A stretch of 64,000 nt of DNA from Ignavibacteriota bacterium (GTDB lineage: Bacteria > Bacteroidota > Ignavibacteria > Tepidaquicellales > OLB5), in the NCBI GenBank assembly GCA_003820375.1, contig RPQH01000016.1:11-64010 (forward strand), given 5' to 3'. The position numbers and the translations under genes were made by a program. The notes beneath the pieces were generated by a model. The model saw nothing but the letters and a program-made list of their open reading frames with translations. It had not been told where the DNA came from and did no database searches. Below, in pieces: positions 8,171-28,403 of the stretch. Numbering within the stretch: the first letter of the stretch is position 1; every line of letters starts with the position of its first letter.

Positions 8171-10333
8171 TTACCGTTGTGGGTTGTTCGCTTGCAGGTA
8201 ATATTTATTCTGAATAGGGGAGTTCACAAACTTCTCTCCATTCCACCATCTTACATTGGTTTTTAATGAATCGGAGAGTTTTTGATAGTATTCTGACGTG
8301 TTGGATTTATTTGTAAGGTTGTCATTAATGCCAATAAAATGTGAGCTAAAAACTATTTCTTTTACATTCATATCCTTATCAAACTTATAAATAATGAAAA
8401 TATCTTCATCAGTAGTATTATATGTGCCTTCGGAAACAGTTACTTCTAAACCGTTTGTATCGAGCTGCTGAATTTCAATAACATCATTGTTCAGCTTTTT
8501 TAAATAATCTGTATTAATAATTGTTTTAGGAAATAGGATATAATATTTTTCCAGTCCCGGTTTTCCGTTTCTTAATGGGTCTGTCTGAGGACTTGCACCT
8601 TCAATGAAATCAGTATCAAAAATTACCATTGCAGCACATCTAAAGTGATTATTACAATATGCAGCAATGAATTCTTCCTTACCATCTTTCTCAATATCAG
8701 CAAATCTATTGACTACCAGTTGTCCGCTGTTCCAGTATTGAGATAATATTTTCCCTGTATGGTCAAGTTTAAATATTCCGAAAGGAAACGTTTTATTTAG
8801 TAAACCTGTAAGAATAATCTTTCTTGTATCATTGTTTAAAGATGGAGTTACAAAAATGCCATCAGTCTGAAAATTATCCTCATGTAAAGTATTATAATAA
8901 ACGGTTTGTCCTGGAATTGTATCTATCCATTTTACGTTACCATTGCCTTCAATACAATAAAGTAACCGGTTTTTTAAAGGGTCCGAAACAGTCCGGGTGA
9001 TATAAAGAATTTCATTCTTCCCATCACCATCTATATCTGTTATATTAACCTTTTTAGTGAAAATTTCTTTATTTGTGTAGAAGTTTTGAAAAGCAGGATC
9101 AACATTATCTGTTTCAAAAAGCTTAATATCATGCTTATTATAAAAACCTACCTTGTAATTTTCATATTTTGCATATTCAGGATTTTTATCAAGCTTTGGT
9201 ATTAGAAATGTTAATACAAAAAAGACCATTATAATAATTGAAACAAACAATAAAACTATGTTGATAAGATTACTGTGAATTTTCTGTAAATGTTTTATTT
9301 TCTCGGTTAATTTTAAATCGTATTTTTTAATACACTGCTCATTTTCCAAAACTTGTTCAAATTTCTTCACCGGGAATATTTCTAAACATCTGCCGGGATA
9401 TTTCTTATTTAGCTCAGAAAGCAAATTTTTCGCATCAGAATAATTATCTTCAGGGATAACAAAATTTTTAAACGGTGAATAAAATACAATTTCCAATTTT
9501 GCTTTAAGAACATTGTATGGCATCGGTACCATAAATCCCTTATCATTAAGCTCACCGGTGTAAACAGTGTTACATAAAAACTTATAATAATACTTGTTTG
9601 AAGTGTTAAATAATACCGCATTAAAGGCAAGTAAAGCTGTACCAATACCCAGAGATTTACCGAGATAACAGGCATCCATCTGACCTATGCTGTATATATA
9701 ATCGTAATTAGAATATTTTATTTTATCTTTCAGGCATTTCTGCTCTGCAATTTTAACTGAGTTTTCCAACTGTTCTTTTATTCCATTATCATCTACTCCG
9801 GTATCATTGGTTAGTATAAAGCTATTGTTTTTATTGCTGGTTCTTTTAATATCAATATTCAGAGGCAGAATTTCTCCTGCTGCTTGTTCATATTTTGATT
9901 TATTATCCGGTTCAATTAATACAATATTCAATTTATCTGGAAAAGCATATACTTTAGTTTCTTCTTTTATCTTGCCCTTCGTTTCACCAAGTATTAATAG
10001 AATTTCTTCTTTCTTCTTATTTAAAATTTCAGAAGCATCTTCAAATGCCTTTATGTCTAAAGAAACATCAGGTATTTGTGTGCAATAATCTAATATTTTC
10101 AGAAGGTCATTAATTCTTCCGGGTGCAATGTAATTGAATTCCTTTTTCTTTATTAAAAGAATAATGAAATGTGAAAATTCTAAATAATAGGAGTTGTATG
10201 GTGTTAGATTTTCGTGATGGAATAGCTCAGAAAGGAAAGCCGATATCTTTATAAGTTTAAGACCTGTACTGCAGGGTTTTTTTAACTCATTCTTGAGTTC
10301 GCTTGCTTTTATTTCTGTATCTAATATTGACAC
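8171..10333 (-). CDS. Membrane protein: N-terminal Lon-like (S16) protease-fold domain, one TM helix, FG-GAP/VCBS-like repeat ectodomain
   Basis: YLGKSLGIGTALLAFNAVL...VYTGELNDKGFMVPMPYNVLKAKLEIV...FVIPEDN aligns by eye to Lon DGPSAGIAM..AMTGEITLRG.VLPIGGLKEKLLAA...VLIP.EN, with the Ser and Lys positions retained. TM: LINIVLLFVSIIIMVFFVLTFLI. Also DIDGDGKNEIL and DIEKDGKEEFI. Confidence 0.6.
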   Translation of the reverse strand: MSILDTEIKASELKNELKKPCSTGLKLIKISAFLSELFHHENLTPYNSYYLEFSHFIILLIKKKEFNYIAPGRINDLLKILDYCTQIPDVSLDIKAFEDASEILNKKKEEILLILGETKGKIKEETKVYAFPDKLNIVLIEPDNKSKYEQAAGEILPLNIDIKRTSNKNNSFILTNDTGVDDNGIKEQLENSVKIAEQKCLKDKIKYSNYDYIYSIGQMDACYLGKSLGIGTALLAFNAVLFNTSNKYYYKFLCNTVYTGELNDKGFMVPMPYNVLKAKLEIVFYSPFKNFVIPEDNYSDAKNLLSELNKKYPGRCLEIFPVKKFEQVLENEQCIKKYDLKLTEKIKHLQKIHSNLINIVLLFVSIIIMVFFVLTFLIPKLDKNPEYAKYENYKVGFYNKHDIKLFETDNVDPAFQNFYTNKEIFTKKVNITDIDGDGKNEILYITRTVSDPLKNRLLYCIEGNGNVKWIDTIPGQTVYYNTLHEDNFQTDGIFVTPSLNNDTRKIILTGLLNKTFPFGIFKLDHTGKILSQYWNSGQLVVNRFADIEKDGKEEFIAAYCNNHFRCAAMVIFDTDFIEGASPQTDPLRNGKPGLEKYYILFPKTIINTDYLKKLNNDVIEIQQLDTNGLEVTVSEGTYNTTDEDIFIIYKFDKDMNVKEIVFSSHFIGINDNLTNKSNTSEYYQKLSDSLKTNVRWWNGEKFVNSPIQNKYYLQANNPQR

Positions 10334-10339
10334 ACTTTT

Positions 10340-11092
10340 TTATTGAAAGACTACAATAGTTATGTTCTTCCGTTGTTTATTTGAAATCCTGAACCTGTTA
10401 TTTGTAATTTTGCAATATTCATATTTTGAGTAATCCTCAGAATAAATAATATAAGCGGAAAAAAACCATTGTACTTTGTTTGGTACTAATTGAAACTCAA
10501 CATCGTCACCGGAAAATTTTATATTTAAAGCTAAATCATTATTTGTTAAACTTTGCCCGCTCAGTTCTTTAATAATAAATACAGCTTCGGGTAGTTTTAT
10601 AATTACATTTTGAGAACCAATAAACTTTTCTTTAATCTTAACTCTTCCGTTTTTATCTGCAATATATGATTTATTTATTCCGGGGATGTATGCTAATGAA
10701 TTTGCTGCGGGAGAATCTTCGTTGGTAATATAAAGTACATATTCACCACTGAATTTATTTTGCAGCAGTCTCGATACTGTCAGTTTTTCTGCCGATACGT
10801 AAGTTCTGACATGCTCATAATAATTTAATTTGTTCTCTTCATGCTGTGCTGCAAGCATGTACCTGTCATTTTCTATATCATCCTGGTGTAAAGTTTCTAA
10901 CTTAATTACCTTTTTACCGCATTTTTTTTCAAGTGTATTGAAAATATTATAAAACTCTTCTAATTCTATAACTTTGTTACGAATTTCTTCATCGGAACTT
11001 ATCATATCTTCTATTTCGCGTATTTTTTCAGCGGATAAAAGTGACCTGTTGAGAATATACAGGTCAAGTTCTATGTCTTTATACTCTTTCAA
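10340..11092 (-). CDS. Hypothetical cytoplasmic protein (250 aa); N-terminus faintly anti-sigma-like
   Basis: Good ORF, 6 nt from the downstream gene. The N-terminal helical segment LDLYILNRSLLSAEKIREIEDMISSDEEI resembles anti-sigma N-termini but lacks the Cys/His ligands and a TM helix. Confidence 0.4.
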   Translation of the reverse strand: MKEYKDIELDLYILNRSLLSAEKIREIEDMISSDEEIRNKVIELEEFYNIFNTLEKKCGKKVIKLETLHQDDIENDRYMLAAQHEENKLNYYEHVRTYVSAEKLTVSRLLQNKFSGEYVLYITNEDSPAANSLAYIPGINKSYIADKNGRVKIKEKFIGSQNVIIKLPEAVFIIKELSGQSLTNNDLALNIKFSGDDVEFQLVPNKVQWFFSAYIIYSEDYSKYEYCKITNNRFRISNKQRKNITIVVFQ

Positions 11093-15552: not shown

Positions 15553-15945
15553 ATGAACAAAAGGTATATATTAGGCGGTTTAATAATTGTAGTTTTCCTT
15601 GTTGTCGGGTTCTTTGCTTTTAAAGACAGCAAAATTGAGTATGCAAATTTCCAGGGTGCAGCTCAAACCCATAAGACTTGCCAGGTCAAAGGCGTATGGG
15701 TTAAGGATAAAGAATCAAAGTTTGATGCATCAACAAACCAGTTTACCTTTGTAATGAAAGATGAGAACAACCAGGAAATGAAGGTTGTGCTCGAGGGTGC
15801 AAAACCTAATAACTTTGAAATGGCAGAGAACGTTGTTGCCAAGGGGAAAGTAACAAACGGCTACTTCCATGCTAAGGAAGTTCTGACAAAATGCCCTTCA
15901 AAGTATGAAGGTAAAGGCGAAGATGTTCAAAAATCCGGGTCATAA
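15553..15945 (+). CDS. ccmE: Cytochrome c maturation haem chaperone CcmE, Cys-type (CxxxY) variant
   Basis: N-terminal TM anchor and an OB-fold-like body. C-terminal KCPSKYEG replaces the usual HxxxY haem-binding motif. Confidence 0.85.
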   Translation: MNKRYILGGLIIVVFLVVGFFAFKDSKIEYANFQGAAQTHKTCQVKGVWVKDKESKFDASTNQFTFVMKDENNQEMKVVLEGAKPNNFEMAENVVAKGKVTNGYFHAKEVLTKCPSKYEGKGEDVQKSGS

Positions 15946-15969
15946 AATTTTATTATAACTAATTAACTA

Positions 15970-18327
15970 ATGGGATCAATATTAATCTTTATCGCATTTG
16001 CATCTGCACTGCTGGCTTCGGTGTCGTATTTCTCGGCACACTTCGGGAAGACCAATGCCGTCAGGTTCGGGAGATTTTTCTTCCACGTGGCTGCAATTGC
16101 TACAATATCATCTGCTGCGTTTTTATTATATTTAATAATTACGCATCAATTCCAGTATACTTATGTTTGGAATTACAGCTCGCGGGACCTTCCGTTTAAC
16201 CTGCTCCTGTCTACTTTTTATGCAGGACAGGAAGGAAGCTTTCACCTATGGGCATTCCTGATGGCATTGATAGGAATATTTTTAGTAACGTTTGTCTCGA
16301 AACGTGACGGGGCAAAAGACAGGTATGAACCCCAGGTAATGGCGGTGTTCACACTGCTTCAATCATTCCTCCTGTTCATTCTTATTGTTAAATCACCTTA
16401 CGAATTTGTATGGCAGTCATTCCCCGGAGATGTACAGGTAGGTTTTGTTCCGCCTGACGGAAGAGGATTAAATCCGCTGCTTCAGAATTTCTGGATGACA
16501 ATTCATCCGCCGATACTGTTCGCAGGATTTTCTGCACTTGCAGTTCCGTTCAGCTTTGCTGTTGCCGCTCTGATGAAAAACGATTACACCAGGTGGCTTA
16601 AGCTTGCAATGCCGTGGACACTGTTCGCAGGAATGGTGCTCGGGCTTGGGATTATGCTCGGCGGCTACTGGGCTTACGGTGTTTTGGGATGGGGCGGTTA
16701 CTGGGGCTGGGACCCGGTCGAAAACTCGTCTCTCGTTCCATGGATAATAATCGTCGCTGCTATTCATACTATGATTTCAGAGCAAACTACTGGCAGGTTT
16801 AAGAAAACGAACCTCCTGCTTTGCATGCTGGCATTCATTTTCGTGCTGTATTCTACCTTCTTAACAAGAAGCGGAATTCTCGGTGATGCGTCGGTACATT
16901 CCTTCGTTGACCCGGGACAGGAAGTTTATTTATTCCTCGTCGTGTTCCTTTCATTGTTCAGTATTGGCGGAATCGGATTAATAATTTTCAGAATGAAATC
17001 TCTTGCAGTGCCTAAGGAAGAAAAATCTACCGAGCTGCTGTCAAGAGAAACTGCATTATTTATAGGTACAATAACATTATGTGCGGCCGCACTGGTAATT
17101 GCAGTCGGTACAAGCTGGCCAATCATTTCAAAAGGCACTGTTGACCCTTCATTCTATAATAAAATGAACCTGCCGCTTGCTATTTTAATAGCTGCAATTA
17201 ACGGCTTCAGTATTTTACTGAAATGGAAAAACTCGGATGAGAAGCAATTCATAAAGAGCTTATATATGCCTGTCATCTTAACAGCCGCTGCAACTATAAC
17301 ACTTGTAATATTCGGGCTTGATGATGTGTTAATGGGTGTCTTTGCCGCAGCGTCATTATTTGCACTGTTCATTAATGCAGATAATATTTTCCGCATGGTC
17401 AAAACAAATTCTATGAAGGCAGGTCCGTATGTCGCTCACTTAGGCATTATGGTTTTATTCCTCGGTGTTATCGGTTCAGCACAATATTCGCAGGAAGAGA
17501 ATGTATCACTGCCGATAGGCGAACCGAAGGAAGTGTTGGGTTACAAGCTTACTTATTTAAAGGCAACCCCGTTTCCCGATGACCCGAACAAGTATCATTT
17601 TAATGTCGCAGTTGAAAAAGACGGAAAATCATACTGGCTCCAGCCGGTTATGTTCTACAGTGATTACAATCAGGGTGTAATGAAGAACCCTGACTATGCC
17701 GCCCTGCTTACAAAGGATATTTACATTTCACCAATGGGTCTTGAAGTCCCTGAAAAATACGCAAAGGATGACAAGATTAATATTAAGAAGGGTGAAACTG
17801 CCGATGTTAAAGGATTGAAGGTTAAGTTCATTGACTTTGACCGCTCCAAATTCAACAGGGACGATATGGCATCAGGCAAAGAAAATATTATTGCCGCTGA
17901 GCTTGAAGTCACAGACGGAACAATGAAGGAAACTATAATTGCCGAACAGCATATTCATGAAGGTGAATCTGAACCGGTTGAGGTTCAGTTAAGCGGTAAT
18001 ACAAGGTTCTCCTTCTTCTTCACGCAGATGAACCTGCAGGAAGAAGCACAGGTTGAGATAGCAGTGGTTGATAACCTTGCACCAAAAAAAGAGGAACCGG
18101 CAGAAACACTTGTTGCAACGGCAAGCATTAAGCCGTTCATCTCGTTTGTATGGGTGGGAACAGGCATTATGGTTCTCGGTTTCTTCTTCTCGATAGTGAA
18201 CAGGTACAGGAAACTCAGACAAGAAAATGAGACAATAAAACATATAAGTGGTAATGGGCATGAGTCTAAAGTGCACACTAACGGCGGAAACAAAAAGCCG
18301 CATAGTAAACACAAACAGCATGCTTAA
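15970..18327 (+). CDS. ccmF: Cytochrome c-type biogenesis protein CcmF (haem lyase)
   Basis: Polytopic membrane protein with the WWD motif WGGYWGWDPVENSSLVPW. C-terminal His/Lys-rich tail. Confidence 0.9.
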   Translation: MGSILIFIAFASALLASVSYFSAHFGKTNAVRFGRFFFHVAAIATISSAAFLLYLIITHQFQYTYVWNYSSRDLPFNLLLSTFYAGQEGSFHLWAFLMALIGIFLVTFVSKRDGAKDRYEPQVMAVFTLLQSFLLFILIVKSPYEFVWQSFPGDVQVGFVPPDGRGLNPLLQNFWMTIHPPILFAGFSALAVPFSFAVAALMKNDYTRWLKLAMPWTLFAGMVLGLGIMLGGYWAYGVLGWGGYWGWDPVENSSLVPWIIIVAAIHTMISEQTTGRFKKTNLLLCMLAFIFVLYSTFLTRSGILGDASVHSFVDPGQEVYLFLVVFLSLFSIGGIGLIIFRMKSLAVPKEEKSTELLSRETALFIGTITLCAAALVIAVGTSWPIISKGTVDPSFYNKMNLPLAILIAAINGFSILLKWKNSDEKQFIKSLYMPVILTAAATITLVIFGLDDVLMGVFAAASLFALFINADNIFRMVKTNSMKAGPYVAHLGIMVLFLGVIGSAQYSQEENVSLPIGEPKEVLGYKLTYLKATPFPDDPNKYHFNVAVEKDGKSYWLQPVMFYSDYNQGVMKNPDYAALLTKDIYISPMGLEVPEKYAKDDKINIKKGETADVKGLKVKFIDFDRSKFNRDDMASGKENIIAAELEVTDGTMKETIIAEQHIHEGESEPVEVQLSGNTRFSFFFTQMNLQEEAQVEIAVVDNLAPKKEEPAETLVATASIKPFISFVWVGTGIMVLGFFFSIVNRYRKLRQENETIKHISGNGHESKVHTNGGNKKPHSKHKQHA

Positions 18328-18356
18328 TTAAATTAAGGGTTAATTGAAATATGCTG

Positions 18357-18390
18357 AATCCGGGTTTGGAAACGAGCCCGGATTTTTTAT
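18357..18390 (+). terminator. Rho-independent terminator after ccmF
   Basis: Stem ATCCGGG (18358-18364) / CCCGGAT (18377-18383), followed by a T-run. Confidence 0.8.
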
Positions 18391-18400
18391 TGCTCATAGA

Positions 18401-18470
18401 GTTCTTTAAGTTCTTTAAGTTCTTTAAGTTCTTTAAGTTCTTTAAGTTCTTTAAGTTCTTTAAGTTCTTT
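18401..18470. repeat. Perfect 9-bp tandem repeat GTTCTTTAA x7, plus a partial unit
   Basis: Direct reading; head-to-tail with no spacers. Confidence 0.95.
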
Positions 18471-18598
18471 TCAGAGGCAGTGTCTGGTCTTAGTTTGAGA
18501 ATTTGGATTAACTTAGATTAACTGATATGTATGCCAGAGAAAGAAAGAACTTAAATTTACAAATATTGACCTGACACAAGCGTCAGCTTAAGATGACC

Positions 18599-18815
18599 GG
18601 ATGATTTACAATCAATGCTGGACAAGGGGTTATTATCAATTAAGAATGAAGAATGAAAAATGAAGAATTGGATGATTTACAATTGTAGTTAGACAAGGGG
18701 TTACTGATATAAATAATTATAAACTGCAATTACATTATTATCTTTATTAACAACTCCAGACTGCGATTAACGAATTACCCCTTGCAAACTATCCGGCTTG
18801 AATGATTTACAATCT
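18599..18815. repeat. Repeat cluster: 71-bp-spaced direct repeats (GATGATTTACAAT-N8-GACAAGGGGTTA x2), a 7-bp array AAGAATG x4 (18642-18669), and an inverted partial third copy
   Basis: GATGATTTACAAT at 18600 and 18671. GACAAGGGGTTA at 18621 and 18692. ATTACCCCTTGC at 18774 and GAATGATTTACAAT at 18801. Confidence 0.75.
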
Positions 18816-19064
18816 GTGTATAAAGCCGCATTTTGCTCATTTTTTACGTAGGAAAACTCCTACAAATGAAAATTTTTCAATTTTTATTTTTTTTGTTTCA
18901 TATCTAACCCTAAAGCCAATCTCAGAATAAATTATTTTCACGACCTGATAAGAACAATTTCGATATTAACAAAGAACGACAGTGAGTGATAACCGGCAGT
19001 ATTTCTCACTACTATATAAAAATAATATAGAGATTGCCGCTTGTCAAGTTTTAACTAAAAATAG

Positions 19065-19109
19065 TTTAGAGTGTGTAGAGTGCTTAGAGTGAGTGGAGTG
19101 TTTAGAGTG
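19065..19109. repeat. 9-bp tandem array (TTTAGAGTG-like x5)
   Basis: tttagagtg tgtagagtg cttagagtg agtggagtg tttagagtg. Confidence 0.85.
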
Positions 19110-19464
19110 GCATTTTGGGCTATTTTGCAGGTAATTATATTAACGCTGCGATAAGCAAGTAAGGATTCCCCTCTTGAGAGGGGTGGACTCCGATGGAGCG
19201 TTAGCGGAAATCGGATGACGGGGTGTGTCCTGAAATAAACCGTGAATACCCTAAAGCATTACTTTAACTCTTCAATTATAGCGACGACAAACCGGTTATT
19301 TTGTTTTATTTTTCCCAAAAACCAGCGGGCAGGAGTGGTTTTTCAAAAACCTCGATTCCTGCATTAAATCGCTATATTTTGGGTGATTTTTGGCACTTTG
19401 GTCAGGAGTTATCTGCTTATACTGCAATGAGTTACAGCCATTTTTCGAAAACTCCTGCCCGGAA

Positions 19465-19530
19465 AGTGCCCGTAAAGTGCCCGTAAAGTGCCCGCTGAGT
19501 GCCCACTGAGTGCCCGCTGAGTGCCCGCTG
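19465..19530. repeat. 11-bp tandem array (AGTGCCCGTAA/AGTGCCCGCTG x6)
   Basis: Units read in register at 19465, 19476, 19487, 19498, 19509 and 19520. Confidence 0.9.
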
Positions 19531-19587
19531 GATGACCGCGGGGTTTTTTACACTCCCATTATAATCTCATTATAAAACTTTATATAC

Positions 19588-20058
19588 TTACGGTATTATT
19601 TTCTTCCTCACTTTAAGATTTGATAATTTAATGTACTCGTAATACCAGCAATGGTTTAGATGGATTCTGATTTTTACCTTAAAGCCCGAAGTATGCGGTA
19701 CCGGAAAATTATGATGCCCGCTTATTGAATTGTAATCTTCTGCATTAAAAGAATTGCTGAGATTATTTTCTTCATCAAAAACCTCTACTGTTAGTGTGTG
19801 TAATGCCGTAGATAATGCTGTATCAAAACGTGATGCATATCCGTCAAAGTCCACTTCATAATCATACTTATCCTGATTTTGGGGAAAATATGTATGCATA
19901 AAAACAGTATCGCCTGCACCATACATTGAAAGCGAATCCAATTTGTAAACAACATATGGGTCTGCATTTTGATTGTTATTAACAATATTATTTTCTCTGC
20001 ATTGAAGAAAGAGAAAAGACAGGGAGAGAATTAATATTTGAATTATATATTTTTTCAT
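19588..20058 (-). CDS. Hypothetical lipoprotein (156 aa from the internal start)
   Basis: MKKYIIQILILSLSFLFLQC is a lipoprotein signal. The longer ORF to 20211 adds an implausible N-terminal extension. Confidence 0.5.
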   Translation of the reverse strand: MKKYIIQILILSLSFLFLQCRENNIVNNNQNADPYVVYKLDSLSMYGAGDTVFMHTYFPQNQDKYDYEVDFDGYASRFDTALSTALHTLTVEVFDEENNLSNSFNAEDYNSISGHHNFPVPHTSGFKVKIRIHLNHCWYYEYIKLSNLKVRKKIIP

Positions 20059-20489
20059 TGGGAAGTGAAGAAAATTATTTTCTTTATTTGAAAAGGCTGT
20101 GAGGATGCCCGGCAATATAATATTATTTGATGCAATTATATTCATGGCATATAAATATGCGAAAAAACTTTGTGAAGATATACTGAAAAAACAAAAGTCG
20201 CCATTTTTCAACTATATTACGGGATTTTCTTTGACAAATTACACCTCAAAAAGTTCAATACTATGCATTAATCGCAGTATTTCAGGAAAATTTGCCTGAA
20301 AATTTTGTGATTTCTGAGAAAATCTTCTTTGACTTAAAATGTGCTAAATCAGTAATTTATTAACATTAAAAACCACATTTTCAAAATGTGATACAGTGAA
20401 AAGCTTTTTTAGAGTTTATTACTGACAATTCTCTTGCTGATGTGGAATATATTTAAACAATAATTATAAATTAAAAAGGAGTTGGGAAT

Positions 20490-20648
20490 ATGAAAGTTTC
20501 TCCATGGCATTCAAAAAAATCCATTGTTTATCATAACAACACAAAATGTACTTTAGGAAATAATATAGAAAGAATAAATAAACAATCGGGAACAGGTGGT
20601 AAACCTATATGTAGTTTATGTTCGAAATTAAATAAAGTTAAGAAATAA
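20490..20648 (+). CDS. Small Cys-containing protein (52 aa; below the ORF-track cutoff)
   Basis: RBS aaaggag lies 8 nt upstream of the ATG. Encodes MKVSPWHSKKSIVYHNNTKCTLGNNIERINKQSGTGGKPICSLCSKLNKVKK, with a C..(20)..CxxC spacing suggesting a metal-binding knuckle. Confidence 0.4.
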   Translation: MKVSPWHSKKSIVYHNNTKCTLGNNIERINKQSGTGGKPICSLCSKLNKVKK

Positions 20649-20727
20649 ACCACTTACTAAAATTTCTTTTGTAGATGAAGATAGGATAATTTTTAATAAC
20701 ATATAAATTTAATAAAGGAGAAATATT

Positions 20728-21006
20728 ATGGCACTTTTAAGCAGCAGAGATCTTAAATATACATATTCTTGGACAGCTTATGAAGGTGACAATCCTAAAA
20801 TAAGCGGTGAACCTGATAATACTTTGTTGAATAGGAATGAGGGATATGAAATGCTTTATTTTATAAATAAGTTCGCTGAGATACACAATTTTATAAATAA
20901 AGAATCCGGACATAAAGTAGAAGAATTGATTAAAACTAAGGTACCTAGCCACATACATTCACAAATAAAAATAAAGGATTGGTTAGTGCAAAATTGGAAT
21001 AATTGA
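20728..21006 (+). CDS. Hypothetical small protein (92 aa)
   Basis: RBS aaaggag upstream. No recognisable domain. Confidence 0.45.
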   Translation: MALLSSRDLKYTYSWTAYEGDNPKISGEPDNTLLNRNEGYEMLYFINKFAEIHNFINKESGHKVEELIKTKVPSHIHSQIKIKDWLVQNWNN

Positions 21007-21071
21007 GTAAAAATATATTGTAAATTAACATGAATAAAAATATTTTATCTTAAATAATATAATAAAATAAT

Positions 21072-21344
21072 ATGCAAACTTTAATTACGTATGATGTAAA
21101 CAAAGATCATACAAAAGTAAAAAAAGCTTTAAAGGAAAAAGGGTATAGAGATATTATTGCTGGGTCTAATAATGTACCCTGTAATTTACCAAATACAAGT
21201 TTATGGAAATCAGGAGTGAGTTTTACAACAGCTCTTTCAGATCTACAGGAAGTTACCCAAAAATTAAATGTTATACTTGAAAGGGCATTCACTGCGGAAT
21301 TTGACAAATGGACAGGAATTGAAGGATTAGAGCATAAAGAATAG
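21072..21344 (+). CDS. Hypothetical small protein (90 aa)
   Basis: The beta-alpha start MQTLITYDVNKDHTKVKKALKEKGY is reminiscent of small ferredoxin-fold (Cas2/VapD-like) proteins, but this is not diagnostic. A terminator follows. Confidence 0.45.
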   Translation: MQTLITYDVNKDHTKVKKALKEKGYRDIIAGSNNVPCNLPNTSLWKSGVSFTTALSDLQEVTQKLNVILERAFTAEFDKWTGIEGLEHKE

Positions 21345-21372
21345 GGCAAAGGCGGTAATACCGCCTTTTAAT
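21345..21372. terminator. Bidirectional rho-independent terminator between convergent genes
   Basis: AAAGGCGG (21348-21355), loop TAATA, CCGCCTTT (21361-21368), flanked by A/T runs. Confidence 0.75.
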
Positions 21373-21405
21373 AAATAATATTAATTATGGTTGTAAATAT
21401 TTCTG

Positions 21406-22584
21406 TTATAATATTTTTTTTCTGAAGTCACGTAAAGCCTGTCTCCAAGCTCTTAGCCAGTTGCCATTGTTTTTTTTCTCTTCAAATAAAATATCTTCTT
21501 CTTCAAGTTCAGTCCAATTGTTTTCAGCTTCTTTTAGCCAAATATTTACATTTGAAAGTGGGTCGTTAGAATCTAAACATTTTTCAACGTTCATGAACCA
21601 ACATAAATAATGTCTCCAACTGTAACCTAACCATGCTTTTTTTGGTTTTTCCTTAAACGATTCTATAATAACATTTCCCCAAAAATTATTTGAAAAATTC
21701 GTATTAAAAAAATGCTCAAAATTATTTTCGTTCAAACGACCAATGTCAGCCTCCCTTAAAAATGTAAGTAAAGAATGTTCAAACCAATATTCTAATTGAC
21801 CGCCACCTTTTTTCGAAGGTTCTTCAAAACGTGATAAAGTAAACCTTCTTAAGTTAAAAAATTTGCCTGTTGCACAATGAGTTGCGCCAGCAACTTTATA
21901 TAAGATCATCTCCGATGAACAAAATGAAATTAATACTTCTTTTCCTGTTGAATTCAATAAATGAATTAATTGCATTGCACCTAAAAGCTCATCTGCTTCA
22001 TCAAGTTCTCTGCGTGGTTCGGTATCAGATATAAAAACAATGTAATATCCACAACATTCCACTTCTGTTAAAATAGAAGCGTAAGTGAATATATTATCTT
22101 GTTTTATTAAGGCTTTCATACTTACCATAACTGTACATAAGATTTCAATTTCAGTATCTCTACTATTTTTATGTAAACTTTTACAGGTTTCAGCACATAC
22201 TTCATAATAGTTCTCGTCAAATAGTTTAGGAAGTATCACAGGTGAAGCAACTTTATTTACATTTAACTTGCTACTAAATTTTATAAGTTTTTTATTTATC
22301 TCATTCCACCAGGGTTTTGAAGCATAATCAGTTGCAGAATCAATATCCTTAGGAAAGTAAGGTTGTTTTATCAAATGTTCTCTTTTTGAGCGCGGAAAAT
22401 AAAGTTGTGGGTCTAATATAATATCTAATTTTTTGTCAGTCTTGTCCGTAATTTTTAACAACTGTTTTTGTAATTCCGCTGGATTTCTATTGACTGGACT
22501 TAAAATTATTCCTTTAAATTCTCTAATGTGTTTTTCACCTACAAGGTTTTCTGTATCATGTCCCATTTGCATATATGAAGCCAT
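21406..22584 (-). CDS. Hypothetical protein (392 aa), third gene of the nuclease-like/kinase operon
   Basis: RBS aaggag 10 nt after the kinase stop. No motif I can assign. Trp-rich helical C-terminus. Confidence 0.6.
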   Translation of the reverse strand: MASYMQMGHDTENLVGEKHIREFKGIILSPVNRNPAELQKQLLKITDKTDKKLDIILDPQLYFPRSKREHLIKQPYFPKDIDSATDYASKPWWNEINKKLIKFSSKLNVNKVASPVILPKLFDENYYEVCAETCKSLHKNSRDTEIEILCTVMVSMKALIKQDNIFTYASILTEVECCGYYIVFISDTEPRRELDEADELLGAMQLIHLLNSTGKEVLISFCSSEMILYKVAGATHCATGKFFNLRRFTLSRFEEPSKKGGGQLEYWFEHSLLTFLREADIGRLNENNFEHFFNTNFSNNFWGNVIIESFKEKPKKAWLGYSWRHYLCWFMNVEKCLDSNDPLSNVNIWLKEAENNWTELEEEDILFEEKKNNGNWLRAWRQALRDFRKKIL

Positions 22585-22594
22585 GTAATACTCC

Positions 22595-23446
22595 TTAATT
22601 AAAAATATTTAAAATATCTTGTGTGTTTATATACCTTTGTACTGGCCATGCAGAAAGCATCTTTAATATATCCTTAAAACCCATTTTTGTTATTTCTATA
22701 ATAAATTCATTTGAACATGGTAATCTGTTTGCAATGTGATTTACTACATTTGAAATATTCATACCGGTTGATTGAAAAGGGTGTTTACCTGTCAAGCAAA
22801 TACCTAATACTATCCCAATTGAGAACTGATCACTTCTCCATTTTATTAAATGTTTTTCGTTATTTAATTGCTCAGGTGAGCTATAATAAGGTGTGCACGG
22901 ACCTTGGGGCATCCAAGACATTGTTAAAGAAGGTAAGGACAAATCTCTAACAAGACCAAAATCAACTAAACTTGGATATTCAGATTTCGTGCTAAACATA
23001 ATATTATCTGGTTTGATATCTCTATGGACTAAATCTAGGGTTTTCAAATGTTCTAATGCTTTTATTAATGCGAACGCATACTTTTTAACATCACTTATAG
23101 GTACTTTCCCATATTTTAATCTATCTGTTAAACAGCCATCGTCATAAAATTCTTCAATTATGTAAATAAAAAGAGTTCCATTATATGCATATTGCCCATA
23201 CTCATGAATTTTTGAAATATATGGACAATCACATTTTTTTATAGCATTTATCTCTCTTGTAGTCCTATCTATACTGATTTTTTGCAGATCAACAATTTTA
23301 AGGGCTATTTCTAGACTGTTGCAAGTGGTAGCCTTGAAAGTTTCTTTAAATGCTCCATTACCGACAAATTTATTATATATTAAATTTAATTTTTTGCAAA
23401 TATCTTTTGCAACATCCTCATATTGTGGATTAAAAGGTTTGGCCAT
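22595..23446 (-). CDS. Ser/Thr protein kinase (Hanks type), catalytic domain only
   Basis: GAFKETF (P-loop-like), IALKIV (VAIK Lys), HRDIKPDNIMF (catalytic loop), VDFGLV (DFG), YYSSPEQ (APE). Confidence 0.85.
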   Translation of the reverse strand: MAKPFNPQYEDVAKDICKKLNLIYNKFVGNGAFKETFKATTCNSLEIALKIVDLQKISIDRTTREINAIKKCDCPYISKIHEYGQYAYNGTLFIYIIEEFYDDGCLTDRLKYGKVPISDVKKYAFALIKALEHLKTLDLVHRDIKPDNIMFSTKSEYPSLVDFGLVRDLSLPSLTMSWMPQGPCTPYYSSPEQLNNEKHLIKWRSDQFSIGIVLGICLTGKHPFQSTGMNISNVVNHIANRLPCSNEFIIEITKMGFKDILKMLSAWPVQRYINTQDILNIFN

Positions 23447-23865
23447 TAGGCATTTTCGATATAGTTATTGGCATGTTCTGTAAGCCAGACCGAATATGGA
23501 CAATTTTTGATTGCTTCGATATGAACAATAATAGAAGATTGATTTATAGTACATAACCCTATTCCTCTTTTTTCAAATTCATCGATAAATTTTAATGCTA
23601 TCGTTGCTGTTTTATCAGGTAGGACCACATAAGAATAATGAGCATAAATTGTGTTTTTATAAGCCTGGTGTAAAGCATCTTTCCATTTATAAAGTTTTGC
23701 TTCAAATGCTATTAAAAAACCATCTTTTGTTATACCTATAATATCAGTTTTTCCGCTTCTATAATTGAACTCAGTAGCGAAATTTAAACATTTGACATTT
23801 TTTTTTCGTGTTGTCTTTAGCTTTTTTTGAAAATCTTTAACTAATTGTGATTCCTTTGTATACAT
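23446..23865 (-). CDS. PD-(D/E)xK nuclease-fold-like protein (139 aa)
   Basis: ATEF...GKTDIIGITKDGFLIAFEAKLYKW fits the E...D...(D/E)xK spacing. Its stop overlaps the kinase start (TAATG). Confidence 0.5.
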   Translation of the reverse strand: MYTKESQLVKDFQKKLKTTRKKNVKCLNFATEFNYRSGKTDIIGITKDGFLIAFEAKLYKWKDALHQAYKNTIYAHYSYVVLPDKTATIALKFIDEFEKRGIGLCTINQSSIIVHIEAIKNCPYSVWLTEHANNYIENA

Positions 23866-24403
23866 TAATATAAAATAACAAATATTAAAAATAAAAGATA
23901 CAACTCTAATGGTATTATTAATTTATTTTTTACTTTTTTTCGTTACTGTTACTCATTATAATAACAATTGTGTCATATTTTTCCATTCCATTGCACATTC
24001 GTAGTTTTTCGTCTCCCTGATAAGGGGGAATAAAAAAGAAACTAAAAACAGTGTTAGGTCTTTCTTGAAAATACAGATAAATTTTAATCATTACCGGTTT
24101 TCCTCTCCGTGCTCTCAGTGTGCTCTGTGGCTATTATCTTTTCATAGGCAAGGGGTGATTATCCATCAATCAAGTTCTGTTATATCTATAAAGATTATTA
24201 GTTATTGTAGATTGTATGTATAATCACGGAATCACCGTCTTGTCCCTAAATCCTCTTTGTGGCAGGGGAGGGGAGTGAGTTCTTCAGTTTCATTCATGGG
24301 ATTGCCACGCTTTCCTTGCTTTATAACAATAAATACTTGTCATCTATTTTTCAGTTCTAATTTATATTCCATTACTTGTTCGAGCTCGCAATTCATTTAT
24401 TGA

Positions 24404-24442
24404 TGTAAAAAAAAGCCGCAATCTTATCGATGGCGGCTTTTG
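24404..24442 (-). terminator. Rho-independent terminator closing the cytochrome cluster
   Basis: AAGCCGC (24413-24419) / GCGGCTT (24433-24439), with an A-run on the plus strand (a T-run on the minus strand) after the stem. Confidence 0.75.
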
Positions 24443-24461
24443 TAATTTTATATCTTATCTA

Positions 24462-25151
24462 TTACGGGTTCTGACCGAAGTTTACTACACCATTCACATG
24501 CAGGTCAGTACGTTTAAATGTACCCGATGAATCCATCACTACACGGTGACAGTCTACACATGTAGTAATTGTGTTATTCGGGTCATGTGTGTACAACGGA
24601 AATGGTTTCGGATTCGGATTTCCTGTAACAGGATTACCATGGCATGAACCGCAAATTACATTTTCCGGCTCCATCCATTTTACAGTCATCTGATTTCCGC
24701 CGGCAAAACCACCATGGCAATATACATCTGCACATGACCGGTCATTTGCATCATACTGCGGATTGGGTATATAACCTCCATATATCCGCTGTTTTGCAAG
24801 CGGTCCGAATGTTATTTCAGCCCTGTTATCAGGATTTGTTCTGTCTATGTGTGTTGAATCCCAATAATTATTTACCGGAATATGGCACTCGCCGCACTCT
24901 ACCTTTGCAGAGAACCTTGTTGCCATTAAATGCTGAACATGAGCACCTACACCCGGGTTGCTCCTGGATGTATCGCCGTTCAATGCTTTAGGCGGGTTCG
25001 GATTGTCGCCTCTTCCGTGGCATAATGTACACTCTCCCGATGACCTTGATGGTGCAAGTATATCATCTTCAAGCTCACTGCATCCCTGGTAAATAAATAC
25101 CAATGCAGTAATTAAAAATAAAACTGAGTATAATTTCATATGTTTTTTCAT
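24462..25151 (-). CDS. Multihaem c-type cytochrome lipoprotein (4 CXXCH + 1 CX4CH)
   Basis: Lipobox VFIYQGC. Motifs CTLCH, CGECH, CADVYCH, CGSCH, CVDCH. The paired CX4CH...CXXCH arrangement resembles the Geobacter-type repeat domain. Start taken at MKKHMKLY, 1 nt after the upstream stop. Confidence 0.8.
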   Translation of the reverse strand: MKKHMKLYSVLFLITALVFIYQGCSELEDDILAPSRSSGECTLCHGRGDNPNPPKALNGDTSRSNPGVGAHVQHLMATRFSAKVECGECHIPVNNYWDSTHIDRTNPDNRAEITFGPLAKQRIYGGYIPNPQYDANDRSCADVYCHGGFAGGNQMTVKWMEPENVICGSCHGNPVTGNPNPKPFPLYTHDPNNTITTCVDCHRVVMDSSGTFKRTDLHVNGVVNFGQNP

Positions 25152-25152
25152 A

Positions 25153-26454
25153 TTACTTGAACCTCCTGTCGCCATCGGTGCTGTTATGGCAGTAACCGCA
25201 GAAACCTACACCGCTGATTCCGTTTGGTCTTGCATTAGCATCACTGTGGCATGTATAACAAATTGCACCCTGTGTTTCGTGCCATATTCCCTTATTATCA
25301 TTTTCAAAACCTGATTCATGTGTTCTCGGGTTAGTACCTTTCACACCGTCGTTATCTATATGGCAAGTAATACAGATGGGGTCACCGCCCTGTGTATCGT
25401 GGCAGCTCTGGCATGATTCAATATCTTTTCTTGCTATTGTAGCATGGAGCCCGCCGCCTGTACCGACACCAAAGGTTGTAAACATCGGCTGTTTATGGCT
25501 GTCAGGTGCAATACTGCTGAGTGTCTGCCCGTTATCGCTATGGCATGTATTACAGAATGTTACAGGGTCATGACAGGTCTTGCACTCAAACCGCTTGTGG
25601 TTTGCGTCAAGCCCGTGTGTGAACCTGTAATTCAGGTCGTGAGCTGTCGTAAGCTTTTGCAGGTCGTGCCTGTCAATTCTTGTAGCCCCTTCCTTGCTGT
25701 AATAAGGAGCGTAGAAGTTTTCGCTTGTATTATTTCCCGTAACGTTTACAGGACTGTGGCATACCTGGCAGAAGTTATCGCTGTGGCACATCATACAATT
25801 ATTCTTGTTTGAGCTTGGGTCAAATACAACCTTATGCTCATTTAAGAAATTAGACTGCCTGTGGCTTTTCGGGAACAGGTTAGTCAGGTTTGTATGGCAT
25901 GATTCACAGTTATTGCCTGCCTGCTGGCTCAAGTTAACTGCCGGCTGGTTCTGCTCTGTATGGCAGGTACTGCAAACTTCCATCGGCGGAAAAGCCGTCG
26001 GTGATTCTTTTGCAAATTTAACATTATCAACGCCAACGTGGCATGCTGTGCATTCCTGCTTTTGTGTAACAACATGGAATTTATGTGAAAAAGCAAGTTC
26101 CTTTTTGGTCGGCGGGAATTTCTTAGCCGCACCTTCAACATGGCAGAAATTACAGTTCTTCTGGTCGGTAACATCGTGGCATGCACTGCATTCGTTATGT
26201 CCGGGGTTCAGGTCATCTTTTGCAGAGACTGAAGTGTTTGCTTTAACGTGGCAGTCTTTACATGCAACGGCAGCTTCTTTTACGTGAAACTTATGGTCGA
26301 ACTTTATTACTTTGCTGTGGTCTTCCTGTGCTGCAGACGGATATACGCTGACTTTCTTCATGTCCGTCTTTGTATCCTTCATCAAATAAGCAGTTGAAGA
26401 TAGAAATACAAGGACACCAGCAAGAAGTAAAAAGTATAGTTTATTAATTTTCAT
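25153..26454 (-). CDS. Periplasmic 14-haem c-type cytochrome (c7/c3-like repeats)
   Basis: 14 CXXCH motifs. Recurrent F.HK.H....C..CH units resemble polymerised c7-type domains. Signal peptide present. Confidence 0.9.
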   Translation of the reverse strand: MKINKLYFLLLAGVLVFLSSTAYLMKDTKTDMKKVSVYPSAAQEDHSKVIKFDHKFHVKEAAVACKDCHVKANTSVSAKDDLNPGHNECSACHDVTDQKNCNFCHVEGAAKKFPPTKKELAFSHKFHVVTQKQECTACHVGVDNVKFAKESPTAFPPMEVCSTCHTEQNQPAVNLSQQAGNNCESCHTNLTNLFPKSHRQSNFLNEHKVVFDPSSNKNNCMMCHSDNFCQVCHSPVNVTGNNTSENFYAPYYSKEGATRIDRHDLQKLTTAHDLNYRFTHGLDANHKRFECKTCHDPVTFCNTCHSDNGQTLSSIAPDSHKQPMFTTFGVGTGGGLHATIARKDIESCQSCHDTQGGDPICITCHIDNDGVKGTNPRTHESGFENDNKGIWHETQGAICYTCHSDANARPNGISGVGFCGYCHNSTDGDRRFK

Positions 26455-26468
26455 AATTTTTTTTATAC

Positions 26469-27776
26469 TTAAAATTTCTTAAATAACCAATAGCTGAAAC
26501 CTGCCATGAAGCGGGTGTCAGTCTTATAGATCCGGTTTTTTATAAATTGTCCCTGTAAATCAATTGTAAACTGCCTGATTGGCCTGTAAGTAATGCCAAT
26601 CATTCCGCTCAGTGAATTTACCTTATCAACAAAATAATCACCAAGCTCGTATCTTGCATAACTGATAGCAGCATTCCCTGAAAGTTTTTCGGGAACTATC
26701 TGGTTTGTGTAATAGGCGTTAATACCGTCAGACTCTCCGGAATATCCCATATATCTTGTAAAGTTAATTCCGAAGTTTGCATGACTGACACCTGCCTGCA
26801 CCCTTATTGAGTTATCATCATCATATATCACATCCGAAACTCTTACGAATGCATTCATACCGTTATTGAAAGTATAATCTGCACCACCTTCGATTTCCAT
26901 GTTCTGCTTATGTGTAAATACCCAGAAAATTGTATTATAAGCTAACTGCGGCTGCCTGTATGTGTAACCGGCAGAGAGGTTCAGATTTTTCATAACGTTT
27001 GTTCTTACATTGAACTCACCGTAATAAAATTTCTTCAGGTTAATATCATAATATGCATTGCCGTAGAAGTTATGTTTTCCGAGGTAAGTATAATTGAAAT
27101 CTAATCCTGCGAGCTGTTCGGCAGGAGTATCATAATCAATTAAAACTTCCTGCAGATTGAATAAGCTGTCAGGACGCAGTGTATAATATGAAGCAAGCTT
27201 ACGGTGCTTGTTGGTGTAGCTCAATGATGCCATAAGGTCTTTCACTCCATAGTAAGCAAACTGTGCACCCACCATGTAGTTTTCCTTGGCTTTAAAATGG
27301 CTAGTGAAGGTATAATCGTAAGGAGTAAGCGCTCCTCCAAAGCCTGTTAACTGAAATTCTTTGTTCTTTCCTGCTTTTATCTTAAGTAATAAACCGTCTA
27401 TTGGTCCTTTGCCAACACCGGCATAAACATACTGCCTGCCTGCTTTTACATCAAGAACGTTGAACAGGTTCGTTCCTTTAATGTACAGGTTATATGCCCT
27501 GTATTTAAATGCATCTTCCGATGTTTTGTTCATCACATCTTCTTCAGCCTGCAGAGATGTATTAAAGCTCCATTGCTTCTGCTGAACTTCAAAAAGAAGG
27601 TTCTGGTAAGCTTTCATGTGGAATGTTTTAGGACCGGCATTTCCTGCTGAGTCAGCAAGAGAGTCAGCTCTTTCCCATCCGTACACATTTGTGCTGAACC
27701 TAAGATTCAAGTTTTGAGAATACAATACAGGTAGTGATACAAAGAAAAGAAAAACAAAAAGTAGTATTTTTTTCAT
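26469..27776 (-). CDS. Predicted outer-membrane beta-barrel (porin-like) protein embedded among the cytochromes
   Basis: Signal peptide, alternating aromatic/polar beta-strand pattern throughout, C-terminal ...FSYWLFKKF. Confidence 0.65.
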   Translation of the reverse strand: MKKILLFVFLFFVSLPVLYSQNLNLRFSTNVYGWERADSLADSAGNAGPKTFHMKAYQNLLFEVQQKQWSFNTSLQAEEDVMNKTSEDAFKYRAYNLYIKGTNLFNVLDVKAGRQYVYAGVGKGPIDGLLLKIKAGKNKEFQLTGFGGALTPYDYTFTSHFKAKENYMVGAQFAYYGVKDLMASLSYTNKHRKLASYYTLRPDSLFNLQEVLIDYDTPAEQLAGLDFNYTYLGKHNFYGNAYYDINLKKFYYGEFNVRTNVMKNLNLSAGYTYRQPQLAYNTIFWVFTHKQNMEIEGGADYTFNNGMNAFVRVSDVIYDDDNSIRVQAGVSHANFGINFTRYMGYSGESDGINAYYTNQIVPEKLSGNAAISYARYELGDYFVDKVNSLSGMIGITYRPIRQFTIDLQGQFIKNRIYKTDTRFMAGFSYWLFKKF

Positions 27777-27800
27777 ATCATTTTATTTTTTAAAATAGGA

Positions 27801-27824
27801 TACGCCCGCAGCTCAGCGGGCGTA
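27801..27824 (-). terminator. GC-rich hairpin (possible intra-operon attenuator or terminator)
   Basis: TACGCCCGC (27801-27809) / GCGGGCGTA (27816-27824). The T-run is better on the plus strand than on the coding (minus) strand. Confidence 0.4.
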
Positions 27825-27839
27825 ATTTTTAATTAACAC

Positions 27840-28403
27840 TTACTTCTTCGGATGCTGAATCTTTGCCCATGCTTCATCAAAGTTGAATGCTTTGAATGTC
27901 GGACTATCAGCATTATGGCATGTTGTACAGAAAGCTGCTTTATCTGAATGCTCAAGTAAACCGTTTGCAACTGCCTGTGCATGGTCTTTCATAATAGACA
28001 TAGATTTATAAGCTGAACCGGGACCGTGGCATGTTTCGCACTGTACACCTTTTGTTTTGTCAAATGTTGCATCAAGCTCAGCTTCTACCAGTTCTTTTCC
28101 AAGTGTATGGCATTTTACGCACTGCGGAGTTTCTGCTGCTGCAGTGGTGAATCCTTTATCTTTAGCTATCTTATCTGCCTCAGGTGTGGTAAGAACTGTA
28201 TATGCCTGTGAGTGTTTTGATTCCTGCCATATTTCGAGCTGTTTTCCTTTTGCATCGCCTTTATGGCACATACCGGCGCATTTATCTACACCGATATATT
28301 TGAAATCACCGGCAGCTTTACCTGTATCACCGGTAAAGGCAGAAAAAGAAATGAAGGCAACTAAAAAGATTATAGTTGCCGGTAAATAAATTTTCTTATT
28401 CAT
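27840..28403 (-). CDS. Tetrahaem c-type cytochrome, cytochrome c554-family-like
   Basis: CAGMCH (CX3CH), CVKCH, CETCHGPGS, CTTCH. Signal peptide present. Confidence 0.85.
   Translation of the reverse strand: MNKKIYLPATIIFLVAFISFSAFTGDTGKAAGDFKYIGVDKCAGMCHKGDAKGKQLEIWQESKHSQAYTVLTTPEADKIAKDKGFTTAAAETPQCVKCHTLGKELVEAELDATFDKTKGVQCETCHGPGSAYKSMSIMKDHAQAVANGLLEHSDKAAFCTTCHNADSPTFKAFNFDEAWAKIQHPKK

Follow-up and report, generated by a model that had tools for sequence, protein, structure and literature searches.

Stk2 of Staphylococcus is a defence system encoded by a single gene, that of a eukaryotic-like kinase. PD-T4-6 of E. coli is also a single-gene kinase defence (PMC9519451; the name is that of PADLOC), and in PglW of BREX type 2 and in some DndF proteins a NERD nuclease, a pseudokinase, a kinase and a DNA-binding or sensor region are fused into one polypeptide (PMC12839542, PMC10853773). 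Here we describe a 2.5 kb cassette of three genes on a 64,000-nucleotide stretch of an Ignavibacteriota genome (assembly GCA_003820375.1, contig RPQH01000016.1, positions 11 to 64,010; hereafter the window), whose products are a small nuclease (gene 1), a Ser/Thr protein kinase (gene 2) and a protein of an unannotated family with a predicted TIM barrel (gene 3). An earlier note, made from the letters of this DNA, had singled out the trio as a candidate novel defence or conflict system, and the computational tests reported below support that candidacy, the anti-phage function itself being drawn only from genomic context.

The nuclease-kinase-sensor arrangement of PglW and some DndF proteins is the nearest described counterpart to the logic of the trio. 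Both combine a PD-(D/E)xK nuclease and a Ser/Thr(/Tyr) kinase, which is active in PglW and DndF, with a third module, which in PglW and DndF is a nucleic acid-binding or sensor part, and the defence systems of PglW and DndF are proven or predicted. PglW and DndF are, however, single fused proteins of ~1400-1700 aa with a pseudokinase before the kinase, acting inside the multi-gene BREX and Dnd systems, whereas the trio consists of three separate small proteins, lacks a pseudokinase and stands alone, with no BREX or Dnd genes consistently near; moreover its nuclease has no NERD match in Pfam and its third module is a TIM barrel, unlike that of PglW and DndF. With Stk2 and PD-T4-6 the trio shares a central Hanks-type Ser/Thr kinase, and PD-T4-6 profiles span nearly the whole of gene 2, but those kinases act alone and that of the trio is always encoded together with the nuclease and the barrel. 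MAD6 of the MADS system is the best PADLOC match of gene 2 (133.6 bits), although the match covers positions 53-259 of the 659 in the mad6 profile, its kinase domain alone, and the multi-gene MADS set lies outside the conserved cassette. CapK/CapS, KKP, the HipA-like DS-6, DndFGH and BREX were considered as matches and rejected, their kinases or architectures being different.

In PADLOC v2.0.0 and NCBIfam no named system matched genes 1 or 3, in agreement with the earlier statement that the combination is not recognisable as one. A description of the trio was likewise not found in the full-text literature, which left out most subscription journals, and absence there is not proof of novelty. 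We regard the trio as neither an already-named system nor a categorically new principle.

Conservation, spread and neighbours of the trio

Gene 3 has at least 647 homologues, ~50% identical and from many phyla. In a scan of one genome per species (185,579 genomes) 88 relatives were confirmed by pattern, which is a lower bound, and 80 loci were kept. These derive from Acidobacteriota, Verrucomicrobiota, several proteobacterial classes, Desulfobacterota, Bacteroidota/Ignavibacteria, Actinomycetota, Clostridia, Planctomycetota, Chloroflexota, Nitrospirota, Thermotogae, Leptospira, Armatimonadota, Gemmatimonadota and others; the cassette is present in more than 15 bacterial phyla, and its cultured carriers include Burkholderia arboris, Undibacterium terreum, Rubrobacter marinus and Leptospira ainazelensis. 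Searches with the window proteins (tblastn) recover genes 1, 2 and 3 at 76 loci with the order and common orientation that they have in the window, and all three loci that were seeded independently from the kinase carry the full trio. The mean pairwise identities of the three proteins are nearly equal (0.41-0.44) and their identity matrices correlate pairwise (r 0.76-0.84, Mantel p <= 0.001), as expected if the genes are inherited and transferred together.

The association extends to far more divergent relatives. A profile search of 1.84 billion representatives returned 873 gene 3 clusters at 50% identity (E <= 1e-3), including a second tier of full-length proteins ~22% identical to gene 3 of the window. 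One subgroup was examined at 77 metagenomic loci, and in this divergent clade the kinase gene, whose product is ~30% identical to gene 2, is directly upstream of gene 3 and on the same strand at every locus with an extractable ORF (open reading frame; 62/62). A homologue of gene 1 lies directly downstream, on the same strand at 25 loci and on the opposite strand at 21, and both the ExK motif of the nuclease and the catalytic residues of the kinase are retained. The earlier note had made its proposal depend on the trio being conserved as a unit in other genomes, and this is what the same-order, kinase-seeded and divergent loci show. That the gene set has been kept under divergence and reordering, with the kinase-barrel adjacency unbroken, is the strongest evidence for a joint function and for the kinase and the barrel protein being the core pair of the trio. 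Judged by their motifs all three proteins look active, and no recurrent fourth gene or small partner was seen among the ORFs neighbouring the cassette at related loci.

The genes are also tightly coupled. In the window the TAA stop of gene 1 (23448-23446) shares one base with the ATG of gene 2 (23446-23444), and 10 nt separate the gene 2 stop (22597-22595) from the gene 3 ATG at 22584; the TAATG overlap, the gap and an AAGGAG ribosome-binding site are all as originally reported. At ~70 orthologous loci the distance from the kinase gene to gene 3 varies between -29 and +26 nt with a median of 1 nt, gene 1 overlaps the kinase gene at most of them, and overlaps or very short gaps are the rule. 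Given that the same tight spacing recurs across these loci, the coupling is conserved and not a matter of chance.

The trio is found on plasmid pPNAP03 of Polaromonas naphthalenivorans, where gene 3 is a 'hypothetical protein' in RefSeq, and on a plasmid of the haloarchaeon Natribaculum breve, and one gene 3 homologue comes from a Helarchaeota metagenome-assembled genome. Sequence identity is similar (~45-50%) between different phyla, the phylogeny of the family is incongruent with taxonomy, and integrases adjoin the trio at loci L170 and L173. The trio is one horizontally mobile functional module, as seen from its patchy spread, the flat cross-phylum identity, the plasmid copies, the integrases and a G+C content lower than that of its flanks. 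A phage origin was considered and rejected, the cassette having no match in 50,697 phage records or in 2.9 million viral contigs (IMG/VR).

Defence or mobility genes are located within 8 kb of the cassette in 10 or 11 of 14 annotated contexts, in line with the expectation that its relatives would be found near known defence genes. The neighbours comprise SoFic, HNH and HigB, with HTH regulators nearby (L001); a KAP NTPase, a Bil-like ubiquitin system, two TIR proteins and Schlafen (L002); a Y1 transposase and a UvrD-PD-(D/E)xK helicase-nuclease (L003); a restriction-modification-like set of a large helicase, Bro-N, an N6_N4 methyltransferase and ResIII (L085); NERD and SNase (L168); Schlafen and Mrr (L169); the integrase of L170; patatin and DUF87 (L171); BilA/B, ThsB-TIR and NACHT (L172); and, beside the integrase of L173, DpnII and HsdR. 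Matches to mad2, mad3 and mad8 occur among the neighbours at a few loci. When the ORFs lying up to 7 kb from the cassette were searched against PADLOC v2.0.0 (2023; E <= 1e-10), 137 neighbour ORFs from 16 loci matched 99 families and 134 from 17 further loci matched 197, compared with 4 families for the 44 other ORFs of the window that served as control. By this crude test the cassette shows the genomic association expected of a defence system.

We consider it probable, if by no means assured, that the trio is an unnamed anti-phage or anti-mobile-element defence or conflict system. Several observations weigh against this. Housekeeping genes are the only neighbours in three contexts (this window, L088 and L174); the enrichment is crude, as it counts families rather than proteins, uses longest-ORF calling and has a single-genome control; the three proteins are unusually conserved for immune genes, with a mean pairwise identity of 41-44% across phyla; and the non-specific fold match of the gene 3 model would leave sensor, effector and substrate roles alike possible. 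The three housekeeping contexts, and the fact that TIM barrels are typically metabolic, would suit an ordinary signalling or metabolic operon in which the kinase regulates a metabolic TIM-barrel enzyme and the third gene is incidental. The trio is nevertheless confined to a tiny fraction of species with a phylogeny at odds with taxonomy, its nuclease is kept even where the gene order is permuted, no metabolic genes co-occur with it consistently and gene 3 fits no known enzyme family, and on the strength of this distribution we hold such an operon to be very unlikely. That gene 3 might prove to be a housekeeping enzyme was named at the outset as a possible refutation; its rarity, patchy distribution and constant tie to the kinase argue that it is not.

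A few copies depart from the standard arrangement. The order is rotated to gene 3, gene 1, gene 2 at two near-identical loci (L027 and L028), and gene 1 is inverted in L039. The kinase is truncated or frameshifted beside an intact gene 3 in L049 and L052, gene 3 is truncated beside an intact kinase in L055, L075 and L082, and L076 has a lone gene 3 fragment; the other exceptions are loci cut by contig ends. These variant and apparently decayed copies may be real pseudogenes or assembly errors. In a soil metagenome locus (L174, 10130-11395) a second Ser/Thr kinase of 421 aa is encoded convergently and directly downstream of the trio.

The decayed copies bear on a reading of the trio as a toxin-antitoxin or addiction module of three parts that stabilises mobile elements, with the kinase or the nuclease as toxin and the barrel as neutralising or regulating partner. 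The operon is compact and translationally coupled, there are plasmid copies and integrase neighbours, HigB and HTH regulators lie nearby in L001, and kinase toxins are known, for example the HipA-like DS-6 (PMC13092281). But the kinase appears to have been lost at two loci and gene 3 to be truncated at three, and these apparent losses, some of which may be assembly errors, run in both directions and give no clear sign of a toxin-antitoxin asymmetry; nor does any component resemble a known antitoxin or DNA-binding autorepressor, all three looking enzymatic, and the copies are mostly chromosomal. We find an addiction module unlikely, while noting that toxin-antitoxin function and abortive-infection defence are not mutually exclusive.

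The nuclease, kinase and barrel proteins

The gene 1 motifs ATEF, TDIIG and FEAKL contain E32, D41 and E55-x-K57, all four residues of which are invariant in alignments of 28 homologues and of 62 orthologues. E5, G38, W61 and Q67 are among the further positions invariant in the 28-homologue alignment, and E55 and K57 are also retained in the divergent ~22% clade. The protein has the D...(D/E)-x-K signature with an upstream acidic residue, and its AlphaFold model (pLDDT 96.3) has the alpha-beta-beta-beta-alpha-beta core of the PD-(D/E)xK superfamily, formed by a helix at 5-18, strands at 28-35, 38-45 and 51-56, a helix at 61-73 and a strand at 77-82. The best Foldseek match is 3dnx (E 6.6e-6, TM 0.61, rmsd 2.9 over 112 columns), followed by NucS/EndoMS, SfsA and the nuclease domains of Card1/Can2. 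Searches of the Pfam (NERD included), NCBIfam and PADLOC libraries gave no match, and the PHROG matches are weak, one of them being to an endonuclease family. According to the model gene 1 is a restriction-endonuclease-fold nuclease, as had been proposed from its E...D...ExK spacing, and it is predicted to be active; E32, D41, E55 and K57 are candidate catalytic residues, as are E5 and Q67.

Gene 1 has in common with SPO1766 (the 3dnx structure) and the NucS/EndoMS domain the minimal PD-(D/E)xK core and E...D...ExK, but sequence identity is 12-18% with no Pfam or PDB profile match, gene 1 has an additional C-terminal helix-helix-hairpin-helix region (residues 84-138), and its genomic partners are different. 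Gene 1 is also prone to be overlooked. It is absent from the gene tables of some records in which tblastn reveals an intact ORF; a 71-aa ORF on the opposite strand is annotated in its place in L003 (6690-7199), and the PLSDB table for the pPNAP03 stretch (L166, 7736-8143), which is incomplete by design, shows nothing at this position. Because gene callers often miss gene 1, surveys based on annotated proteins would undercount the trio.

Gene 2 matches the Pfam Pkinase family (PF00069) with 119 bits against a cut-off of 31.7 (E 3.1e-34). Its key residues are K50, E65, HRDIKPDN (141-148), DFG (162-164) and SPE (190-192), and K50, HRDIKPDN, DFG and SPE are conserved in 62 orthologues; the kinases of the divergent clade keep the catalytic residues, with DLG in place of DFG, the D and G being kept. 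The original description of a bare kinase domain with intact motifs is accurate except in one detail, the lysine motif being IALK and not VAIK. T175 in the activation segment is invariant and is a likely phospho-acceptor. The 120 closest kinase homologues are all bare domains of 278-325 aa without fusions, and the search for Rosetta-stone fusions was equally unproductive among longer gene 3 homologues, such as P0155 (503 aa), whose low-complexity tails look like read-through.

Altogether gene 2 matches 35 PADLOC families, with mad6 best. Of the 24 other matches listed all but one are PD-T4-6 models, with scores up to 111 bits; model PDLC04053 covers residues 27-278 (E 1.6e-32). An automated PADLOC run might label the gene PD-T4-6, and the matches could be taken to mean that the locus holds nothing more than a defence already described, be it a single-gene kinase of the PD-T4-6 or Stk2 type, MADS or BREX type 2, and that the genes beside the kinase have no connection with it. 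The PD-T4-6 scores, however, do not exceed those of mad6 or of the generic Pfam kinase, to which the PADLOC scores are about equal, and gene 2 is far below every NCBIfam equivalog cut-off, with 69.3 bits against 460 for MAD6 (NF047741), 36.3 against 990 for PglW (NF033442) and 82.2 against 450 for Stk1/PknB (NF033483), the protein stopping right after the kinase domain. A Stk1/PknB PASTA housekeeping kinase was rejected on this score and on the length of the bare domain (283 aa, in homologues 278-325 aa); BREX type 2/Pgl on the PglW score, the same length and the lack of BREX core genes in the window or recurrently at related loci; MADS on the MAD6 score and the lack of consistently adjacent MADS genes; and a stand-alone PD-T4-6 kinase because in this clade the kinase gene is always accompanied by genes 1 and 3. 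With profile scores of this kind, and with kinases always flanked by genes 1 and 3 and no MADS or BREX genes consistently adjacent, it is extremely improbable that the trio represents one of these systems.

Gene 3 has no match in the Pfam, NCBIfam, PADLOC or PHROG libraries, and a search of PDB sequences and Pfam with its superfamily profile brought up nothing of note; the earlier note could not place it in a family either. The model (pLDDT 86.5, pTM 0.89) has a (beta-alpha)8 barrel at ~1-240, a loop at 245-263 and a C-terminal helical domain at 278-391, the barrel strands at 4-6, 25-28, 54-57, 111-113, 147-155, 179-185, 216-219 and 236-238 alternating with helices. Foldseek searches of PDB and BFVD return generic TIM barrels only (E about 1e-4, TM 0.3-0.5), and the matches listed at E <= 1e-3 are all TIM-barrel enzymes by description. 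tRNA-guanine transglycosylase (TGT) recurs among them, as do GH3 hydrolases, enolase-superfamily enzymes, aldolases and pyruvate kinase.

The family is characterised by the motifs Q6-x-G8, S29-P-x-N32, D58-P-Q-x-Y62, P115, P190-R-x-E193, S223-S224 and G240...N244-L-R246, and its conserved residues are Q6, G8, S29, P30, D58, P59, Q60, Y62, P115, Y181, G233, A234, G240, N244, L245, R246, F248 and R252. In the model these appear to lie at or just after the C-terminal ends of the strands, which in TIM barrels form the usual catalytic or ligand-binding face. D58 is the single nearly invariant acidic residue of the family, and GKFFNLRRF (240-248), itself nearly invariant, is the most conserved motif. 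The loop at 245-263 (~21796-21852, minus strand) is the only low-confidence segment of the model (pLDDT < 50), yet it is conserved; it is basic, contains R252 and a GG pair (260-261) and adjoins the barrel mouth, and could be a nucleic acid- or partner-binding element. As a phosphorylation site for the kinase the loop is unsupported, T249 and S251 being 70-90% conserved in the clade of the window and the equivalent position variable in the divergent clade. A match of the gene 3 C-terminus to CutA nucleotidyltransferase (E 0.014), which had offered a CutA/PAP-associated lead, vanished with a broader superfamily profile and is for this reason taken as noise.

The recurrence of TGT deserves separate consideration. 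TGT and DpdA resemble gene 3 in having a (beta-alpha)8 barrel with a C-terminal extension, and TGT structures (2pot, 7a6d, 7ov9_C and 2ash) are among the top gene 3 matches (E 1e-4 to 1e-3, TM up to 0.5), but gene 3 is no more like them than like GH3, enolase-superfamily, aldolase or pyruvate kinase barrels. In 43 members of the gene 3 family there is no TGT Pfam match at E <= 1, there is no PDB profile match, and the family has no conserved Cys cluster or zinc-site cysteines. With fold matches this non-specific, and neither profile match nor zinc motif, the assignment of gene 3 as a TGT/DpdA enzyme was rejected and kept as a weak lead only.

These resemblances nonetheless raise the question of whether the trio is a DNA-damage, repair or nucleic acid-modification module, in which the nuclease and a transglycosylase-like barrel would act on damaged or modified bases under control of the kinase, as a stress response. 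Structurally gene 1 comes nearest to 3dnx and to NucS/EndoMS, which are repair nucleases. The former we take to belong to the MmcB-like repair family. TGTs recur among the best fold matches of gene 3, the high conservation suits an enzyme with a constant substrate, and UvrD-type helicases adjoin the trio in L003 and L166. Set against this are the rare, patchy and horizontally transferred distribution with some copies on plasmids, neighbours that are mainly defence and mobility rather than repair genes, and a TGT likeness no better than that to other TIM barrels (TM 0.4-0.5), without a TGT Pfam match or zinc cysteines. We view a repair module as improbable; base-targeting enzymes also serve in defence, and the two proposals overlap to that extent.

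The locus in the window

The features of the locus are collected in the table. Each of the three proteins has a 100%-identical entry in the public collection, assigned to an Ignavibacteriae metagenome-assembled genome. The cassette is situated between ccmE/ccmF (15553-18327) and a multihaem cytochrome operon (24462-28403), and together with its low-G+C surroundings (18328-24461, 31% G+C) it splits an apparent single cytochrome neighbourhood, with CcmE/CcmF on one side and the multihaem cytochromes on the other. The cytochrome side encodes at least three multihaem cytochromes and a 435-aa protein without a Pfam match (26469-27776).

Table. Coordinates of the trio and associated features in the window.
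Feature	Position	Strand	Remarks
Gene 1	23446..23865	-	139 aa; minimal PD-(D/E)xK nuclease; from the ORF list
Gene 2	22595..23446	-	283 aa; Hanks-type Ser/Thr protein kinase, catalytic domain alone
Gene 3	21406..22584	-	392 aa; unannotated family, predicted TIM barrel and helical domain
TAATG stop-start overlap of genes 1 and 2	23444..23448	-	Read from the sequence; translational coupling
AAGGAG, Shine-Dalgarno-like	22591..22596	-	Overlaps the gene 2 stop; 6 nt before the gene 3 ATG
G+C-rich 9-bp hairpin	21348..21368		Between the gene 3 3' end and a convergent 90-aa ORF
A+T-rich intergenic region, 596 nt	23866..24461	-	Upstream of gene 1; presumed promoter location

The earlier note had placed the operon in an AT-rich island flanked by repeat-laden DNA and ending at a strong bidirectional terminator, a description that holds in part. 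The trio has a G+C content of 30.1% compared with ~42% in the flanking ccm and cytochrome genes, but 21% of equal-sized windows in the contig (34.9% G+C) are as low or lower. The repeats are present on one side of the low-G+C gap only, where two non-coding tandem arrays follow ccmF: ~10 mostly perfect copies of the 9-nt unit AGTTCTTTA at 18382-18479, and ~6 degenerating copies of an 11-nt unit like TGCCCGTAAAG at 19456-19521. The hairpin at 21348-21368 is real, with a folding energy as RNA of -13.8 kcal/mol on the minus strand (z -3.8) and -12.7 on the plus strand (z -3.2), but a T-run is found on the plus-strand side only and is missing on the minus-strand side, and a consensus terminator scan made no call there, its T-run criterion having failed. 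It probably terminates transcription in both directions.

The region upstream of gene 1 holds a single 53-aa ORF, and no promoter element was identified within it; sigma-70-like matches in 20400-24500 are no commoner than in shuffles (28 vs 23.7 +/- 5). Known RNAs and tRNA attachment sites were considered and rejected: there is no Rfam family match within 18300-24500 and no tRNA in the window. Three small plus-strand ORFs (20490-21344) of 52, 92 and 90 aa converge on the hairpin. The 52-aa product contains Cys, the 92-aa product matches the phage family phrog_33929 (E 3.4e-10, function unknown), and the first 26 residues of the 90-aa product are weakly Cas2-like (PADLOC E about 5e-3). For none of the small ORFs of the window (52, 92, 90, 53 and 207 aa) was a homologue seen at the 174 related loci, and those on the plus strand are therefore not regarded as part of the system.

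Other stretches of low G+C content (24-30%) are present at 4382-11092 and 42778-46326. Their proteins are mostly without a Pfam match (181, 127, 720, 250, 407, 162 and 254 aa), the two exceptions being a von Willebrand factor A-domain protein of 557 aa and one with DUF805/GYF, and no defence-related domains were seen among them.

A possible signalling route and its meaning

Supposing that the trio does serve in defence, its core signalling pair would be the kinase and the barrel protein, acting in a complex. As the kinase has no regulatory domain of its own, the barrel may be its regulatory subunit or an enzyme gated by phosphorylation, with the conserved pocket on its catalytic face as the place where a nucleotide-like or metabolite ligand would bind. 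The high conservation of the proteins speaks for a small ligand or substrate of the barrel that does not change, and is less easily squared with direct recognition of phage proteins, which vary. An infection cue would activate the kinase, probably through T175 of the activation loop, and the active kinase would phosphorylate cellular or phage proteins, license the small nuclease to cut DNA, or both, so that the invader is stopped or the infected cell aborted. That the proteins form a complex, which way the signal runs, what triggers it and what it targets are all inferences, as is the role in defence, and this specific order of events is rather unlikely to be right in full. Somewhat less doubtful, though still tentative, is the more general idea that kinase and TIM barrel constitute a new kind of prokaryotic immune signalling enzyme, in which a dedicated Hanks kinase controls by phosphorylation, or is itself controlled by, a barrel enzyme of a hitherto unrecognised family that either senses a nucleotide or metabolite derived from infection or converts it, with licensing of the minimal nuclease as the output; this would be a new family of defence systems in more than 15 bacterial phyla and in archaea with a new TIM-barrel activity.

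In annotation pipelines the kinase probably goes under a wrong label, 'PD-T4-6' or that of a generic kinase, and the small nuclease gene often goes uncalled. Should the defence function prove true, a widespread and compact three-enzyme module of 2.5 kb would be added to the immune repertoire, and the fused logic of PglW and DndF would be available split into separate proteins, far easier to dissect genetically and structurally. It would also give the first functional handle on two families that have no Pfam, NCBIfam, PADLOC or PHROG model, the barrel family alone comprising at least 873 clusters, and would offer bacterial and archaeal immune signalling by Ser/Thr phosphorylation in a tractable form.

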